Source: Candidatus Daviesbacteria bacterium (GTDB lineage: Bacteria; Patescibacteriota; Microgenomatia; Daviesbacterales; UBA10151). Taken from it: a stretch of 64,000 nucleotides of DNA. Under the pieces are notes generated by a model. The model had not been told where the DNA came from. It made no database searches and saw nothing but the letters and a program-made list of their open reading frames with translations. Below, one piece after another: positions 18,310 through 34,911 of this stretch. Each line of letters begins with the position of its first letter. The first letter of the stretch is position 1. The stretch covers positions 404,550 through 468,549 of the forward strand of contig JAQUSJ010000001.1 of the NCBI GenBank assembly GCA_028715175.1. Direction: 5' to 3'. The position numbers and the translations under genes are program-made.

Positions 18310-19200
18310 ATGGAAAAGATAAAATCTTTGTTTTTTGCGCATAAGACTACAGTGATTTTGGTGGTGGTACTTATTTTATTAGGAGGAGGGGGACTGGTAG
18401 CTTTTCAAAAGTTTACAGCCAAACCGACAGGACTCATTGAAGAAGTTGATCTTTTTTTTGATCCTGAAGGTCCTTATGCCACACTCTTTCCAAGACGTGA
18501 CGGGAACGCTCTAGTTTTAAACCTTAAAAGAACAAGTTCCTATGACGCTATTACTTATGAACTTGCCTATACCAGCAGTCCCGATGAAACAGTAGTCAAA
18601 GGCAACAAAATTATGGATGATGGTGAAGACAACAAGACTGGCGGCTCAATAGACCGGGGGGTGCAAGGGACGATTGATACCAAAGATAAAAAGGGAGAGT
18701 ATGAGCAGGAAATTTTATTCGGGACTTGCAGTAAAAATGTTTGCAAATATGACCAAGGTGTCGAAAACGGGACTTTAACTTTGCATATCAAAAAGGGCAA
18801 TAAAGCTTACAGGATGGTGACGCAATGGCATCTGCAAAAACCTGATGTGGCTTTGGGGAATTTAACTTCTGGTGACGGACATTTAATCTACAAAATAGAT
18901 GGTGATAGGCAAACTTTATCAAATATAGGATTTTCAATAATTAACGATCTAACCGGTGTACCAAAACTGCCTTCAGGAAAGCAGGTTTCAGGTAAGGTTT
19001 ATTCCCTGAATGTGCCAATTGCTAAGCAGTTGACCAATGGTTCAGTCAGTTTGGAACTGGCAGAGAGTCCGCCTGATGGAGCAAAGATTTACCGGTATGA
19101 TAATGAATGGAAAGAGCTGGATACAAAGATAGATGGTAGCAAATTATCCACCAGGACAGATGGCGCAGGGATATTTGCAGTTTTGGTTTCTTCAAAATAA
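18310..19200 (+). CDS. Hypothetical membrane-anchored extracytoplasmic protein
   Basis: N-terminal TM (VILVVVLILLGGGGLVAF). Remainder hydrophilic, no motif recognised. Confidence 0.5.
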   Translation: MEKIKSLFFAHKTTVILVVVLILLGGGGLVAFQKFTAKPTGLIEEVDLFFDPEGPYATLFPRRDGNALVLNLKRTSSYDAITYELAYTSSPDETVVKGNKIMDDGEDNKTGGSIDRGVQGTIDTKDKKGEYEQEILFGTCSKNVCKYDQGVENGTLTLHIKKGNKAYRMVTQWHLQKPDVALGNLTSGDGHLIYKIDGDRQTLSNIGFSIINDLTGVPKLPSGKQVSGKVYSLNVPIAKQLTNGSVSLELAESPPDGAKIYRYDNEWKELDTKIDGSKLSTRTDGAGIFAVLVSSK

Positions 19201-19201
19201 G

Positions 19202-19348
19202 TAAGCAGCTTGTCGCACTACAAAAAATCGCTCGTACGGTAGAGACTTACTCGCTTGTGAGGATTTTGTGGAAAGCAATTTCAAGATTCTGAAATAAGTT
19301 AAGCACAAAATCCTCAACATTTTTTGTTAGTTTGCGACTTCGCTACTT
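19202..19348 (+). repeat. Structured intergenic repeat, copy A: long nested inverted repeats with an embedded intrinsic terminator (stem GAGGATTTTGTG/CACAAAATCCTC + T-tract, 19259-19326)
   Basis: Near-identical 5' (about 40 nt) and 3' (about 80 nt) segments recur at 34184-34356. Confidence 0.7.
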
Positions 19349-19388
19349 AGTCTGATAGATGTAAATTTTACCCCTTGACAAGTTAGTA

Positions 19389-22871: not shown

Positions 22872-22942
22872 ATGACTCTGTTATAATCGCTTTGCGATTA
22901 CATCGCAATGCTTCTTGTAACGCGTTGCGTTATAATGCCTTA

Positions 22943-24202
22943 ATGAAGAAATTAATTAAGGGAATTTTTTCGCAAAGACTAATTAATATTTTTTATCATT
23001 TGCCAAAAGCCGTACTGGCAAATATAGTTTATGGCTTCCCTACCAGGGGGCTTAAAGTTATTGGGATAACCGGAACTGACGGTAAAAGTACGACTACCAA
23101 TATGGTTTATCAGACTTTAAAGGCTGCCGGTAAAAAAACTTCCATGGTTTCTACAATTAATGCTGTGATTGGCGGAAAAGCATATGAGACAGGTTTTCAT
23201 GTCACATCACCTGATCCTTTTACCGTACAGAAATTTGCCAAAGAGGCGCTAGATAACGGTGATAAATTCCTGGTTTTGGAGGCAACCTCACATGCTTTGG
23301 ATCAGTATAGATTTTGGGGAATTAAATTTGATGTGGGGGTAATTACCAATGTTACCCATGAACACCTGGATTATCATAAAACTTTTGAAAATTATTTAAA
23401 AACAAAATTCAAGTTACTGCACGATGTTAAGTTTGCGGTTATCAATCTGAATCTTAGCCAATATACAGGACGATTACATAAGTTATTGACGAAGGGAAAA
23501 ATTATCACTTTTGGGTTAGATAAAGGTGATTTTAATCAAAAGGATCTTAAACTAAACTTGAAAATTCCGGGTGATTATAACATAGAGAATGCGCTGGCTT
23601 CCCTGGCCGTTGCTTTTGTTTTAGGAATTGATAAAAAAATTGCCCTCAGAACCCTGGATAATTTTACAGGTATAAGAGGTAGAATGGAGGAGGTTAAAAA
23701 TCGAAAAGGCATCAAGATTATTATAGATTTTGCTCATACCCCAAACGGCCTAAAGCAAGTTTTAACAACTTTACGCTCCCAGGCGAGGCCCGGACGGCTG
23801 ACAGCTATTATCGGGGCAGAAGGTTATAGGGATGTAGGAAAGAGGGCGATGATGGGAGAGACGGCTCAAAGACTGGCTGACTTTGTTGTAGTTACCGCCG
23901 TTGACCCTCGCGGTCAGTTGGATATAATTAACAGGCAGATTAGCGATGGTGCAAAGAAAGCTGGAGCAAAAAAGGGTATTAATTTCTTTATAATAGACGA
24001 CAGAAGCGAGGCAATAAAATTTGCCATAAACAGGCTTGCTAAAAAGAAAGACGTGGTGGGGATTTTTGGAAAAGGTCATGAAGCTTCTATGAATTTGGAT
24101 GGTAAAAAGGAAATTCCCTGGTCGGATTTTGAGGCGGTTCAATTTGTATTAGCAAAGTCAGCTCGTCACGGCGCAAAAAACCGTTCGACCACTGAATCTT
24201 GA
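22943..24202 (+). CDS. murE: UDP-N-acetylmuramoyl-L-alanyl-D-glutamate--2,6-diaminopimelate (or Lys) ligase MurE (short N-terminus)
   Basis: GITGTDGKSTTT P-loop, EATSHALDQYR, TNVTHEHLDYH, DFAHTPNGL, GAEGYRD...AVDPRGQ, GKGHE motifs. ATG 22943 is preferred; the 17 residues upstream in the track ORF look non-coding (promoter-like TATAAT x2). Confidence 0.75.
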   Translation: MKKLIKGIFSQRLINIFYHLPKAVLANIVYGFPTRGLKVIGITGTDGKSTTTNMVYQTLKAAGKKTSMVSTINAVIGGKAYETGFHVTSPDPFTVQKFAKEALDNGDKFLVLEATSHALDQYRFWGIKFDVGVITNVTHEHLDYHKTFENYLKTKFKLLHDVKFAVINLNLSQYTGRLHKLLTKGKIITFGLDKGDFNQKDLKLNLKIPGDYNIENALASLAVAFVLGIDKKIALRTLDNFTGIRGRMEEVKNRKGIKIIIDFAHTPNGLKQVLTTLRSQARPGRLTAIIGAEGYRDVGKRAMMGETAQRLADFVVVTAVDPRGQLDIINRQISDGAKKAGAKKGINFFIIDDRSEAIKFAINRLAKKKDVVGIFGKGHEASMNLDGKKEIPWSDFEAVQFVLAKSARHGAKNRSTTES

Positions 24203-24261
24203 AACATTTAGTGATTCTCTGGTCTCACTTGAGGCTCGTCAATCGACTACCTGCTGCACAA

Positions 24262-24298
24262 TTGACTCGCCACATTTTTTGACTGCTCGTGACTTCGC
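24262..24298 (+). repeat. Partial third copy of the 3' end of the structured intergenic repeat (ACATTTTTTG-N10-GACTTCGCT)
   Basis: CCACATTTTTTGACTGCTCGTGACTTCGCTATC versus CAACATTTTTTGTTAGTTTGCGACTTCGCTACT in copy A. Confidence 0.4.
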
Positions 24299-24894
24299 TA
24301 TCTTTTTATATGGATTCTAAATATAAACTAATAATTGATTCTTTTGGGAAAGACAGATTTAAATTTAATGAGCCTTTGAAAAATCACACGACTTCCGGAT
24401 TTGGGGGACCTGCCAGGATATTTTTTATTGCCTTTAGCGCCAAAGAATTAATTAAAATAATCAGTATGTGTAGGCAGTTGGGTTTACCGTATTTTTTATT
24501 TGGAAGTGGTTCTAAAATTATGATCTCCGATTTGGGATTTGACGGGTTAATAATCAAAAATCGGATAAAAGATATCCAGACAATTTCCGTTAAGGGTAAA
24601 GTGACAAAATACGGGATAGGAGTTCAGGAGGCTGCAATAGAAGCGGAATCCGGTTTGAGTATAAAAAAATGGGTTGAATATCTTAATGCTCAAAATCTGG
24701 AAGCTCTGGAGTTTATGAATTTACCGGGTACTATCGGCGGGAATTTATTCTTGAGCAAATCTTTGCAAAACCATGCTAAAAGTATTAAAGTATTAGACTT
24801 GAGATCTGAAATCATAGAGATTGCTGCCGAGAATTTAAATCCAAGAAAGCATATAATAATATCTGCGGTATTTAGAATTAAGGCAAAAAAATAA
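24289..24894 (+). CDS. murB: UDP-N-acetylenolpyruvoylglucosamine reductase MurB-like (short, about 200 aa)
   Basis: LKNHTTSGFGGPARIFF then FLFGSGSKIMISDLGFDGLII resemble the MurB FAD-binding N-domain. The protein is much shorter than canonical MurB. The true start may be ATG 24310. Confidence 0.5.
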   Translation: MTSLSFYMDSKYKLIIDSFGKDRFKFNEPLKNHTTSGFGGPARIFFIAFSAKELIKIISMCRQLGLPYFLFGSGSKIMISDLGFDGLIIKNRIKDIQTISVKGKVTKYGIGVQEAAIEAESGLSIKKWVEYLNAQNLEALEFMNLPGTIGGNLFLSKSLQNHAKSIKVLDLRSEIIEIAAENLNPRKHIIISAVFRIKAKK

Positions 24895-28447: not shown

Positions 28448-29523
28448 GATCTCAAGAAAAACGTATGGATTTACCTCTTCTCGTAACGACCGCGGTACTG
28501 GTACTTTTTGGTTTATTAATAGTTTACGATGCTTCGGTAATTAAAGGTTTAAATGATTTTAAGGATAATCTCTATTATATAAGACAACAGCTTGTTTGGA
28601 TGGCGATTGGCGTTTTTTCGTTGATTTTCTTTACCAGGTTCAATTATAGAAAATTTAAATTTCTTGCGGTTCCATTGCTTGTTTGTTCATTATTACTATT
28701 GGTTGCAGTCTTTATTCCGGGACTGGGGGTTTCGGGTGGAGGAGCCCACCGTTGGTTAAGATTTGGAAATGTGACAATTCAACCAGCTGAAATAATTAAA
28801 TTAACGGGAGTAATTTATTTGGCAGTGCTTTTTGAAAAGAAAATTAGAGCAGTCCCCTTTTTAATGTTGGTTGCGGGTATTACTTTTATCACTGCAGTTT
28901 TGCAAAAGGATCTTGGCTCTTCAGCTGTTTTTGTTTTTACTAGCTTTGCTATTTATTTTGCATCCGGGGGTCCGCTTTGGCATTTTGTTTTAACTATTCC
29001 GGTTGGAATAGCAGCTGCTGCGGCCTTAGTGTTAACTTCCGGTTACAGGAGCAAGAGAATACTGGCATTCTTAGATCCATTTTCTGACCCGCAAGGCTAT
29101 ACTTATCATATTCTTCAAGTTTTAATAGCGCTTGGATCCGGGGGGTTATTTGGCTTAGGTTTGGGGCATTCCAGGCAAAAATTTGCATATATTCCTGAGG
29201 CTCATACGGACTCCATTTTTGCTATTATCGGAGAGGAATTGGGATTTATGGGTGGGATTTTCGTGGTAGTATTATTTGCTATTCTCTTAATAAGAGGTTT
29301 TAGGATTGCACAAAATGCGGAAGACAATTTTGGAAAAATTTTAGGTTTGGGACTTACTTCCTGGTTGGGGATTCAAGCAATAATTAACCTCTCATCTATG
29401 ACATCTTTGCTCCCGCTGACAGGAGTGCCACTCCCTTTTATTTCATATGGAGGCTCTGCTCTGGTGGCAAATTTAACAGCAGTAGGGATTCTACTTAATA
29501 TTTCAAAACAAACGATGCAGTAA
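28444..29523 (+). CDS. ftsW: SEDS-family cell division protein FtsW
   Basis: ATGA overlap with the mraY stop. QPAEIIKL, SGGLFGLGLGHS and DSIFAIIGEELGF motifs of the FtsW/RodA family. Confidence 0.85.
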   Translation: MRSQEKRMDLPLLVTTAVLVLFGLLIVYDASVIKGLNDFKDNLYYIRQQLVWMAIGVFSLIFFTRFNYRKFKFLAVPLLVCSLLLLVAVFIPGLGVSGGGAHRWLRFGNVTIQPAEIIKLTGVIYLAVLFEKKIRAVPFLMLVAGITFITAVLQKDLGSSAVFVFTSFAIYFASGGPLWHFVLTIPVGIAAAAALVLTSGYRSKRILAFLDPFSDPQGYTYHILQVLIALGSGGLFGLGLGHSRQKFAYIPEAHTDSIFAIIGEELGFMGGIFVVVLFAILLIRGFRIAQNAEDNFGKILGLGLTSWLGIQAIINLSSMTSLLPLTGVPLPFISYGGSALVANLTAVGILLNISKQTMQ

Positions 29524-29569
29524 TTTATATGTTAATAGCGTAGAATTGTTACATGGAGAAATTGGAAAC

Positions 29570-34183: not shown

Positions 34184-34356
34184 ATAAGCAGCTTGTCACA
34201 CTACAAAAAATCGCTCGCACGGTATAAGCAAGCTTGAAAACGTTGTTTTTAAACTTGCTCGCTTGCGAGTATTTTGTGGAAAGCGATTCCAAAATTCCGA
34301 AGTAAGTTAAGCACAAAATCCTCAACATTTTTTGTTAGTTTGTGACTTCGCTGCTT
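34184..34356 (+). repeat. Structured intergenic repeat, copy B (with extra internal hairpin), with embedded terminator 34267-34334
   Basis: Shares its 5' and 3' segments with 19202-19348. Sits directly after the ftsZ stop. Confidence 0.7.
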
Positions 34357-34357
34357 T

Positions 34358-34386
34358 TTGACAAAAGATTAAGAAATTGGTATTAT
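34358..34386 (+). promoter_or_regulatory. Consensus sigma70 promoter TTGACA-17-TATTAT
   Basis: Perfect -35 and a near-consensus -10 with a 17-nt spacer. Predicted TSS is about 7 nt before the leader-peptide ATG. Confidence 0.65.
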
Positions 34387-34399
34387 CTTGAGTATTGTT

Positions 34400-34468
34400 A
34401 TGAATATGCGAAGAATAGAAATTATTGACATTATTATTGCCCCCAGGAAGGGAGGGTTCTTCGCGTAA
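34400..34468 (+). CDS. Putative Ile-rich leader peptide MNMRRIEIIDIIIAPRKGGFFA (22 aa) of an ileS attenuator
   Basis: 6 Ile codons within 8 consecutive codons (34415-34438). Enclosed by stem GCGAAGAA/TTCTTCGC. A GGGAGGG inside it can pair with the downstream CCTCCC. Confidence 0.5.
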   Translation: MNMRRIEIIDIIIAPRKGGFFA

Positions 34469-34496
34469 CTTAAATTAAGTTTCGCAGAAAGGAGAA

Positions 34497-34521
34497 CCTC
34501 CCAAAATAGGGAGGTTTTTTT
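34497..34521 (+). terminator. Intrinsic terminator (CCTCCC-aaaata-GGGAGG + T7) acting as attenuator
   Basis: 6-bp GC-rich stem plus a 7-T tract. The alternative pairing partner GGGAGGG at 34450-34456 gives an anti-terminator. Confidence 0.6.
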
Positions 34522-34911
34522 GTGGAAAAAATGAGTGCAGTAGAAGTAGATGACTTTTTCACTCCCGAGGAGAGAAGTACAATAGTAGATTGTAGTTACC
34601 GGTTTGCATCCGGACAAATATGTCTTGATACATCATCGCGACCATTCTTAAATCTGGGAGCAAAGGGTTTTCTTATATCGAAAGGTTTAGATCCTCACGA
34701 ACGCGCTGTATTAGAACAACTGGGTAGAGTCTGGGGTTTCTATGAGATTTTTGATCAGATAAAGGGAAGACTAGAAGCATTACGGGATCCTGCTGATTTT
34801 ATTGCTAGTCAACTTGGTATTCAATCAGAAACGTTAGCTAAGGGACAGTTATCACCTGGGCAGAAGTTTAGAATTTTAAGTGAAGCAGTCGATCTTTGTT
34901 ATCGGGGTTGA
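34522..34911 (+). CDS. Hypothetical protein (129 aa) between attenuator and ileS
   Basis: GTG 34522 lies 7 nt after GGGAGG (the terminator 3' arm doubles as SD); an alternative ATG is at 34531. No motif recognised. Confidence 0.4.
   Translation: MEKMSAVEVDDFFTPEERSTIVDCSYRFASGQICLDTSSRPFLNLGAKGFLISKGLDPHERAVLEQLGRVWGFYEIFDQIKGRLEALRDPADFIASQLGIQSETLAKGQLSPGQKFRILSEAVDLCYRG

Follow-up and report, generated by a model that had tools for sequence, protein, structure and literature searches.

A repeated intergenic element in a compact Candidatus Daviesbacteria genome belongs to a previously undescribed family, which probably consists of lineage-specific, small, non-autonomous palindromic repeats of the bacterial MITE type that parallel the RPE, ERIC/YPAL and Correia elements. 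It was recognized in a 64-kb stretch of DNA, referred to here as the window (Candidatus Daviesbacteria, CPR/Patescibacteria; GCA_028715175.1, contig JAQUSJ010000001.1, positions 404,550-468,549 of the forward strand). An earlier note on the window had proposed a dispersed, structured family of MITE or REP-like character, and this proposal is borne out by the number of gene junctions occupied, by covariation in the stems and by the coexistence of filled and empty sites. As expected of MITEs, the element is small and without coding of its own, ends in terminal inverted repeats and occurs as dispersed copies at sites that are filled in some genomes and empty in others. Searches of Rfam in gathering and E-value modes returned no family for the element, the best sub-threshold matches on its copies being at chance level (E above 0.5), and the only matches in the window at gathering score were tRNAs. 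No prior description was found in the literature on Daviesbacteria or CPR repeats, and a 2024 review of MITEs does not mention such elements in CPR bacteria. The note had also offered a conserved 3'-UTR non-coding RNA as an explanation, for which neither an Rfam family nor an independent non-coding RNA gene is indicated.

The window segment is compact and AT-rich, and its + strand holds nearly every gene. A search of the 64 kb with the family covariance model (R1) detected exactly three copies, A, C and B, all on the + strand, and no fourth (Table 1). Copy A lies between a 296-aa hypothetical gene (stop codon at 19198-19200) and the promoter region of mraZ, and copy B has the ftsZ stop (34172) on its 5' side and a promoter-like site (34358-34386) on its 3' side. 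Their predicted folds (-46.1 kcal/mol, z -4.3, for A; -55.2 kcal/mol, z -5.4, for B) agree with the nested inverted repeats described earlier. The two copies do share a 5' and a 3' block, the aligned copies being ~90% identical; the window contains the 27-nt 3' motif CATTTTTTGNNNGNTNGNGACTTCGCT three times and the 5' block twice, whereas neither appeared in 100 shuffles. The extra internal hairpin ascribed to copy B is likewise present and is located in the loop of the first inner hairpin. The segment 24262-24298, previously taken for a partial copy with a truncated 3' end, is instead the 3' arm of the complete but divergent copy C, which has the same three-helix fold as A and B (-40.5 kcal/mol, z -2.4) and whose 5' arm falls within the 3' end of the murE reading frame.

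Table 1. Copies of the repeat in the window, with the stem segments of copy A and the element-encoded end of murE (MFE, minimum-free-energy fold).
Feature	Position in window	Strand	Description
Copy A, full element	19199-19352 (core 19207-19344)	+	R1 match 144.2 bits, E 3e-34
Copy A, outer stem P1, 5' strand	19203-19227	+	AAGC-AGC / GTCGC / ACTA / CAAAAAA segments; pairs with 19320-19348 in MFE fold
Copy A, inner hairpin P2	19230-19254	+	GC-TC-GTA ... TAC-TC-GC, conserved 2x2 internal loop; helix 4 of family alignment
Copy A, inner hairpin P3	19258-19319	+	TG-TGAGGATTTTGTG ... CACAAAATCCTC-A-CA, variable distal part; helices 5-7
Copy A, outer stem P1, 3' strand	19320-19348	+	starts with T6 tract 19320-19325; MFE fold and family helices
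Copy C, full but divergent element at murE/murB junction	24152-24307	+	R1 match 97.5 bits, E 2e-22
Element-encoded murE end, last 14 codons and stop	24161-24202	+	ARHGAKNRSTTES; ORF 22892-24202 extends 42 nt into element
Copy B, full element, extra hairpin in P2 loop	34182-34360 (core 34190-34352)	+	R1 match 130 bits

Scanning one genome per species with the 3' arm returned seven loci, all from Daviesbacteria MAGs save one labeled Gammaproteobacteria, and scanning metagenomes with the 5' arm returned 34 loci that were Daviesbacteria or Daviesbacteria-like. Viral contigs scanned with the 5' arm gave no match, and hence no hint of a phage origin. After removal of duplicates and addition of copies found only by the model, 40 distinct copies matched R1; two further copies in subsequently fetched loci bring the family to ~42 distinct copies, and the copies occupy about 27 different gene junctions, as judged by the flanking proteins. 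Copy number is low (four exact 3'-arm matches in one relative that was scanned whole), which counts against a mobile repeat. One MAG with the element is labeled 'uncultured Gammaproteobacteria' (L008, CAZAZW010000001.1); its 399,694-bp contig encodes the Daviesbacteria-type protein P0006, 68% identical to P0001, and the taxonomic label is therefore probably wrong. The length of the element has a mode of 139 nt and ranges from 87 to 195 nt. Short variants of 87-107 nt (L013, L033, L034, L029, L035 and L037) have lost the distal part of P3, inserts lengthen other variants to ~175 nt (copies B and L041 have theirs in the loop of the first hairpin), and the copies of L038 and L026 are truncated. 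Within the 3' arm of one copy (L042, 2068-2278) is nested a ~100-nt foreign segment, flanked by the direct repeat AGCTCGCAAGCTATGC and probably derived from a second small repeat family.

All copies fold into one three-way junction, whose long, bulged outer stem opens into two inner hairpins. The outer stem is formed by imperfect terminal inverted repeats of ~28 nt, whose 5' AAGCAGCTCGTCACAGTACAAAAAA arm pairs with the 3' TTTTTTGTTTACTTGTGACTTCGCTGCTT arm across 22 model positions, interrupted by bulges. In the 40-copy alignment, which was fitted to the covariance model and thereby favors structure, 93.3% of pair cells hold standard pairs, versus 33-46% when the 3' partners are slid by 1-3 columns. 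The covariation across copies that the earlier note had suggested looking for is present: 33 of the 41 pairs show compensatory change, with 207 cells changed on both sides, and none of 500 shuffles reached any of these measures. An independent MAFFT alignment analyzed with RNAalifold gave the same helices and compensatory change in 13 of 32 pairs. All seven helix segments contribute. Helices 1-3 (P1) are 88-98% paired across the family and show compensatory change in 15 of 22 pairs, pair 33:130 in helix 4 (P2) alternates between C-G (20 copies) and U-A (17 copies), and every one of the 14 pairs in helices 5-7 (P3) has changed in a compensatory manner. Unpaired motifs are conserved as well, namely CGGTAGAGACTT in the P2 loop and TCATTAAG in the P3 loop. 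The paired positions contain 45 G-U pairs versus 30 A-C mismatches, G-U being slightly commoner, and the minus strand folds slightly better than the plus strand in 25 of 32 copies. These two measures point weakly in opposite directions, so that no RNA strand was assigned, and the near balance of G-U and A-C together with the minus-strand folding makes a DNA-level hairpin equally compatible with the data. A self-cleaving ribozyme was rejected by inspection, as the junction has 0-2 unpaired nucleotides and no conserved core.

Comparison of related genomes showed that the element is inserted DNA. The window FtsZ protein is identical to that of the Candidatus Daviesbacteria MAG GCA_028712705.1 (STB_119), whose contig is 88-97% identical to the window over the aligned blocks; exact-protein look-ups with MraZ and P0002 returned no record. 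L001 is the STB_119 locus bearing the dcw cluster, and L004 and L005 are other loci of the same MAG. L045, L046 and L047, also from Daviesbacteria and with the same dcw gene order, served as further relatives at this cluster; the MurE proteins of these three are 81%, 74% and 72% identical to that of the window. STB_119, a relative of 95-97% identity, has copies A (99.4% identical, L004) and C and is without copy B (L001); at site B, where the window has 176 nt from the ftsZ stop to the promoter-like sequence shared by both genomes, STB_119 has 8 nt, and the junction is not clean. L045, L046 and L047 have nothing at site A, upstream of mraZ, or at site C, and L047, the one locus reaching site B, is empty there, with ftsZ and ileS 36 nt apart. 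In these three relatives murE and murB abut or overlap, and the alignment shows ~165 nt inserted exactly there in the window. L047 has a copy of its own that follows the recO stop codon and precedes the start of a gene for a class II aminoacyl-tRNA synthetase; the site is empty in L046, and in the window the two genes overlap by 4 nt. A short tandem repeat (three copies of GCGATAT, L047 4219-4245) lies between this element and the synthetase start codon. Different lineages thus bear the element at different junctions of one conserved 20-kb neighborhood, with gene order kept.

At orthologous sites filled in several divergent genomes, the element is 79-89% identical, versus 71-81% for the flanking 300 nt of coding DNA, and the differences within its stems are mostly compensatory (6 versus 2, 10 versus 4 and 12 versus 4). 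In divergent copies even the best-conserved arm sequences covary: the in-gene copy of L043, from a species with 72% identity at the protein level, has exchanged GTCAC/GTGAC for GTTTG/CAAAC and AGC/GCT for AGT/ACT with zero broken pairs. Conservation at least equal to that of the flanks, compensatory change and the intact pairing within a gene suggest that persistence reflects a host-level function rather than the neutral decay of selfish DNA. Persistence at shared sites could result from purifying selection in place or from replacement by other members of the family.

Pairing extends 4-8 nt past the conserved core in a subfamily-specific manner (AAAGC/GCTTT, GAGAGC/GCTCTC or GGT/ACC). In 33 of 38 copies each flank has a TA dinucleotide no more than 10 nt away, the flanks being AT-rich. 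In 28 of 38 the 3' TA is 4-7 nt beyond the core, for which the rough expectation in AT-rich flanking DNA is ~1/5. Site C can be read as a TA insertion (...GTAT/TA/TATGG...) and is the sole site fitting a TA duplication, site B not being clean. TA is likely the duplicated target, and TA termini are typical of Correia, ERIC and RUP elements (PMC2229807). In the fetched loci no copy had its arms split by a transposase gene, and no parent insertion sequence with ends matching those of the element (AAGCAGCTCGTCAC...GTGACTTCGCTGCTT) was seen, which again counts against a mobile repeat. A HAD-hydrolase gene and a gene for a 237-aa Y1 (IS200-like/RAYT-type) transposase are present between ftsW and murG in STB_119 (L001 4885-6632) and absent from the window (29523-29546); a perfect hairpin beside this transposase gene, GGTGTATCCTT...AAGGATACACC, is unrelated to the element. 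A Y1 transposase gene occupies the same position in the dcw cluster of L046.

The core usually begins 2-18 nt past the stop codon of a same-strand upstream gene, and this stop often lies in the outermost stem. The ribosome-binding site or start codon of the next gene is often only 5-30 nt downstream of the element, which leaves no room for a promoter, so that many downstream genes must be transcribed through it. According to crude stop-to-stop ORF calls, ~25 copies share the orientation of the co-directional genes that flank or contain them; two further copies have convergent neighbors and one has divergent neighbors. The only clearly antisense copy between co-directional genes is that of L018, and the L039 homolog of its downstream gene has a sense copy at the same position. 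L024 carries two copies 3.5 kb apart in opposite directions, each matching its neighbor gene, which indicates that orientation tracks transcription and not a fixed direction of replication. So strong a strand bias is a further point against a mobile repeat. The downstream genes are functionally diverse (glycosyltransferases, PfkB kinase, purD, purC, inositol monophosphatase, thyA, gatB and O-antigen ligase), so the element is not a pathway-specific regulator, and a riboswitch or leader was rejected on the same grounds.

Placement at operon ends, as the element had first been described, is not what the family shows: it occupies gene junctions in general, the next start codon is often within the short distance given above and three copies are inside genes. 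Nor is intrinsic termination a conserved property. Although the inner hairpin and the T6 tract outline a terminator, P3 has an AU-rich stem and a loop of ~35 nt; a terminator scan of the window did not call the inner hairpin, and about 5 of 40 copies have exchanged the A6/T6 tracts for compensatory alternatives such as CAAAGTAC/TTACTTTG. Canonical terminators are found elsewhere in the genome, for example at 34490-34522. Termination is a possible effect of individual copies, but a conserved terminator role is not supported. An outward promoter in the 3' arm was rejected by inspection, since some copies contain a TTGACT -35-like hexamer with no properly spaced -10. Copies A and B are each followed, in the flank, by a promoter-like site, and the one after B is also found at the empty site.

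The region immediately after copy B (34358-34522) has the appearance of an Ile/Leu leader-peptide attenuator, here in a CPR bacterium. It contains a near-consensus promoter-like site (TTGACA-17-TATTAT, with an upstream TG), then a 22-codon isoleucine-rich ORF (MNMRRIEIIDIIIAPRKGGFFA) and a canonical hairpin with a T7 terminator, and it sits upstream of a 129-aa ORF and ileS. A weak, sub-threshold resemblance to the Rfam family Phe_leader was recorded (27.6 bits, E 0.013). In STB_119 the same leader precedes leuA (L001 11342-12883); at the place of leuA the window (34522-34911) has only the 129-aa ORF, which has no Pfam match, a difference in gene content.

Three copies lie in frame within genes. 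The copy in polA of STB_119 (L005) is located between the 5'-3' exonuclease and polymerase domains, is free of stop codons and leaves the downstream frame intact. In the translation of this gene (residues 1-438) the 5'-3' exonuclease domain leads almost directly into the polymerase domain through a linker of 47 element-encoded residues, and there is no counterpart of the 3'-5' exonuclease-like domain, which comprises ~200 residues in Pol I structures. A further genic copy is inside a conserved hypothetical gene encoding 326 aa (P0001); the same 46-residue insert is present in 5 of 15 aligned orthologs (P0001-P0005), the others being shorter or having unrelated sequence there. In the alignment of P0006-P0009 and P0034, the loop after FLPNW holds other low-complexity peptides (LPRSLRSLAMT, RQPRSLARQRKRP...LGLAAFG) that resemble in-frame translations of other repeat families, and the loop may be an insertion hot spot. 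In the window, murE has no stop at the ancestral position and its C-terminus is derived from the element: Mur_ligase_C ends at residue 395 of 436, and orthologs of ~400 aa cover ~92% of the query.

The genic copies and the murE tail all use the same frame of the element (ARHGAK.. ... HFLTARDFA). This frame is stop-free more often than any other, in 13 of 36 copies, and contains stops in the remaining 23; the commonest element length fits a 46-codon insert. A profile of the insert peptides, compared with 1.84 billion protein representatives, matched only eight ORFs of 30-89 aa, all within elements. Genic insertion is thus occasional, in-frame insertion as a common event being rejected on this count, and gene callers sometimes annotate the element as a small gene, although it encodes no protein of its own.

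Under the preferred MITE-type explanation, the family would have spread, at present or in the past, by transposition in trans, probably into TA dinucleotides. The fold may be kept because the mobility of the element, or its tolerance, depends on it, and the relevant hairpin would form either in single-stranded DNA or in the co-transcribed mRNA. The strand bias could then reflect selection on the transcript, one orientation being tolerated in operons and the other not, while effects on termination or mRNA stability would be secondary and specific to particular copies. Copies that landed in a permissive part of a gene keep its reading frame, to which they add either 46 inserted codons or a new C-terminus.

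A possible but rather unlikely alternative is that the element serves its host as a cis-acting RNA, the co-transcribed hairpin acting between cistrons as a signal for processing, stabilization or leaky termination. The element would have dispersed long ago and selection would now maintain its function; this explanation overlaps the MITE-type one, and the transcripts of ERIC and Correia elements provide a precedent. It would account for the location of nearly all copies on the strand of their flanking genes, directly after stop codons, for an element identity equal to or above that of flanking coding sequence, for compensatory conservation even at orthologous sites and within a gene, for the conserved unpaired motifs of the P2 and P3 loops and for the hairpin-then-T6 form that occurs in the family. 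However, selection in + strand RNA alone should strongly favor G-U pairs, which only modestly outnumber A-C mismatches, and it is the minus strand that folds slightly better in most copies. Furthermore, most orthologous junctions are free of the element, with genes that simply overlap, which implies that it is dispensable; the T-tract has been lost through compensatory change in ~5 copies, the distal part of P3 is deleted in six, and the flanking genes have no function in common. A different idea, judged distinctly unlikely, is that the repeat is a selected structured module and not just selfish DNA. It could punctuate operons as an RNA that a lineage-specific factor binds or cuts, or it could be acted on by an undescribed transposition system for single-stranded DNA that recognizes structure. 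The latter would jointly explain the bulged three-way junction, the compensatory evolution and the near-absolute strand bias.

Single-stranded folding also enters the highly improbable case of a structure-specific recombination site similar to the attC sites of integrons, in which a tyrosine or HUH recombinase recognizes the folded strand and genes move as cassettes. The element is an imperfect palindrome of attC-like size, lies directly after the stop codon in the orientation of the upstream gene and has a stem with conserved bulges and a variable distal part; the near-symmetric G-U and A-C mismatches fit a structure at the DNA level, and two relatives have a Y1 transposase gene in the dcw cluster. 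Its neighbors, however, are core housekeeping genes in conserved order (dcw, recO, aaRS), among which the element varies and the genes stay, and elements do not border the segments in which the gene content of the window differs from that of STB_119. The ends (AGCTCGTCAC ... GTGACTTCGCT) contain no GTTRRRY/RYYYAAC core, no recombinase or integrase was found among the 20 window ORFs scanned, and the hairpin flanking the Y1 transposase gene of L001 is a different one. That the repeat is an independent small gene, either for a self-transcribed sRNA, possibly of the minus strand, or for a protein of ~50 aa, is extremely improbable. The slightly better folding of the minus strand, with its purine-rich internal loops, and the eight predicted proteins in public data that are translations of the element would agree with a gene. 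Against it, no conserved promoter or terminator is found outside the element, the flanks of different copies being unrelated; the supposed protein frame is interrupted in most copies, the changes are compensatory at the level of base pairs and not synonymous, and the repeat is multi-copy with presence/absence variation.

The Daviesbacteria family, read as MITE-type repeats, fits a known class of short bacterial repeats (100-200 bp). Members of this class have inverted repeats at their termini, give stable stem-loop transcripts, contain frames able to fuse to host genes, occupy sites that are filled in one relative and empty in another, and affect mRNA in an orientation-dependent manner (PMC2229807, PMC10969869, PMC2649163). 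Within this class it behaves most like RPE and ERIC/YPAL, and it is unusual in its branched fold, extensive compensatory change and very strong strand bias. RPE are likewise palindromic repeats: they are ~105-150 bp long, have inverted repeats at their ends and are predicted to form a long stem-loop, and they occur between genes and in frame within conserved protein genes whose reading frame stays open (PMC2229807, PMC10969869), as seen here in polA, P0001-P0005 and murE; their hosts, too, have small, compact genomes. The RPE hosts belong to an unrelated phylum, so that the comparison concerns behavior; RPE-1 has 19 genic insertions in one genome, whereas only three host genes and spurious small ORFs are affected here, and the three-way junction, the extent of compensatory change and the same-strand bias set the Daviesbacteria element apart. 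The ERIC/IRU and YPAL elements are imperfect palindromes of 127-168 bp with TA termini and filled or empty sites between close relatives; they are co-transcribed with flanking genes, have orientation-dependent effects and contain ORFs able to fuse to genes (PMC2229807). The Daviesbacteria element, as known from sequence data, differs in its apparently lower copy number, host lineage and sequence. The Correia elements of Neisseria (CREE/NEMIS) are similar in size (100-155 bp), in their terminal inverted repeats of ~24-26 bp, in a TA target, which is likely for the Daviesbacteria element, and in being gene-adjacent and co-transcribed, with length variants that arise by internal deletion (PMC2649163, PMC2229807); their IHF site, outward promoter and RNase III cleavage are not established features of the Daviesbacteria element. 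REP/BIME sequences resemble it as extragenic palindromes after genes, and a Y1 (IS200-like/RAYT-type) transposase gene is found in relatives of the window genome. REPs, however, are single hairpins of 20-40 nt in hundreds of copies, often flanking a RAYT gene, whereas the present element is 4-5 times longer, branched and low-copy, and the hairpin of the Y1 gene in L001 is unrelated to it.

CPR/Patescibacteria have small, tightly packed genomes, which are usually portrayed as containing little mobile DNA. The present family indicates that a MITE-like element can still colonize a few permissive positions of such a compact genome, including junctions in the essential cell-division and cell-wall cluster, the C-terminus of MurE and the linker of PolA. 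The family model helps annotators to avoid spurious 50-aa ORFs and artificially extended gene ends. With a structure conserved over ~40 copies, the family offers a test case for whether such repeats are kept for their mobility or have been recruited as mRNA signals.
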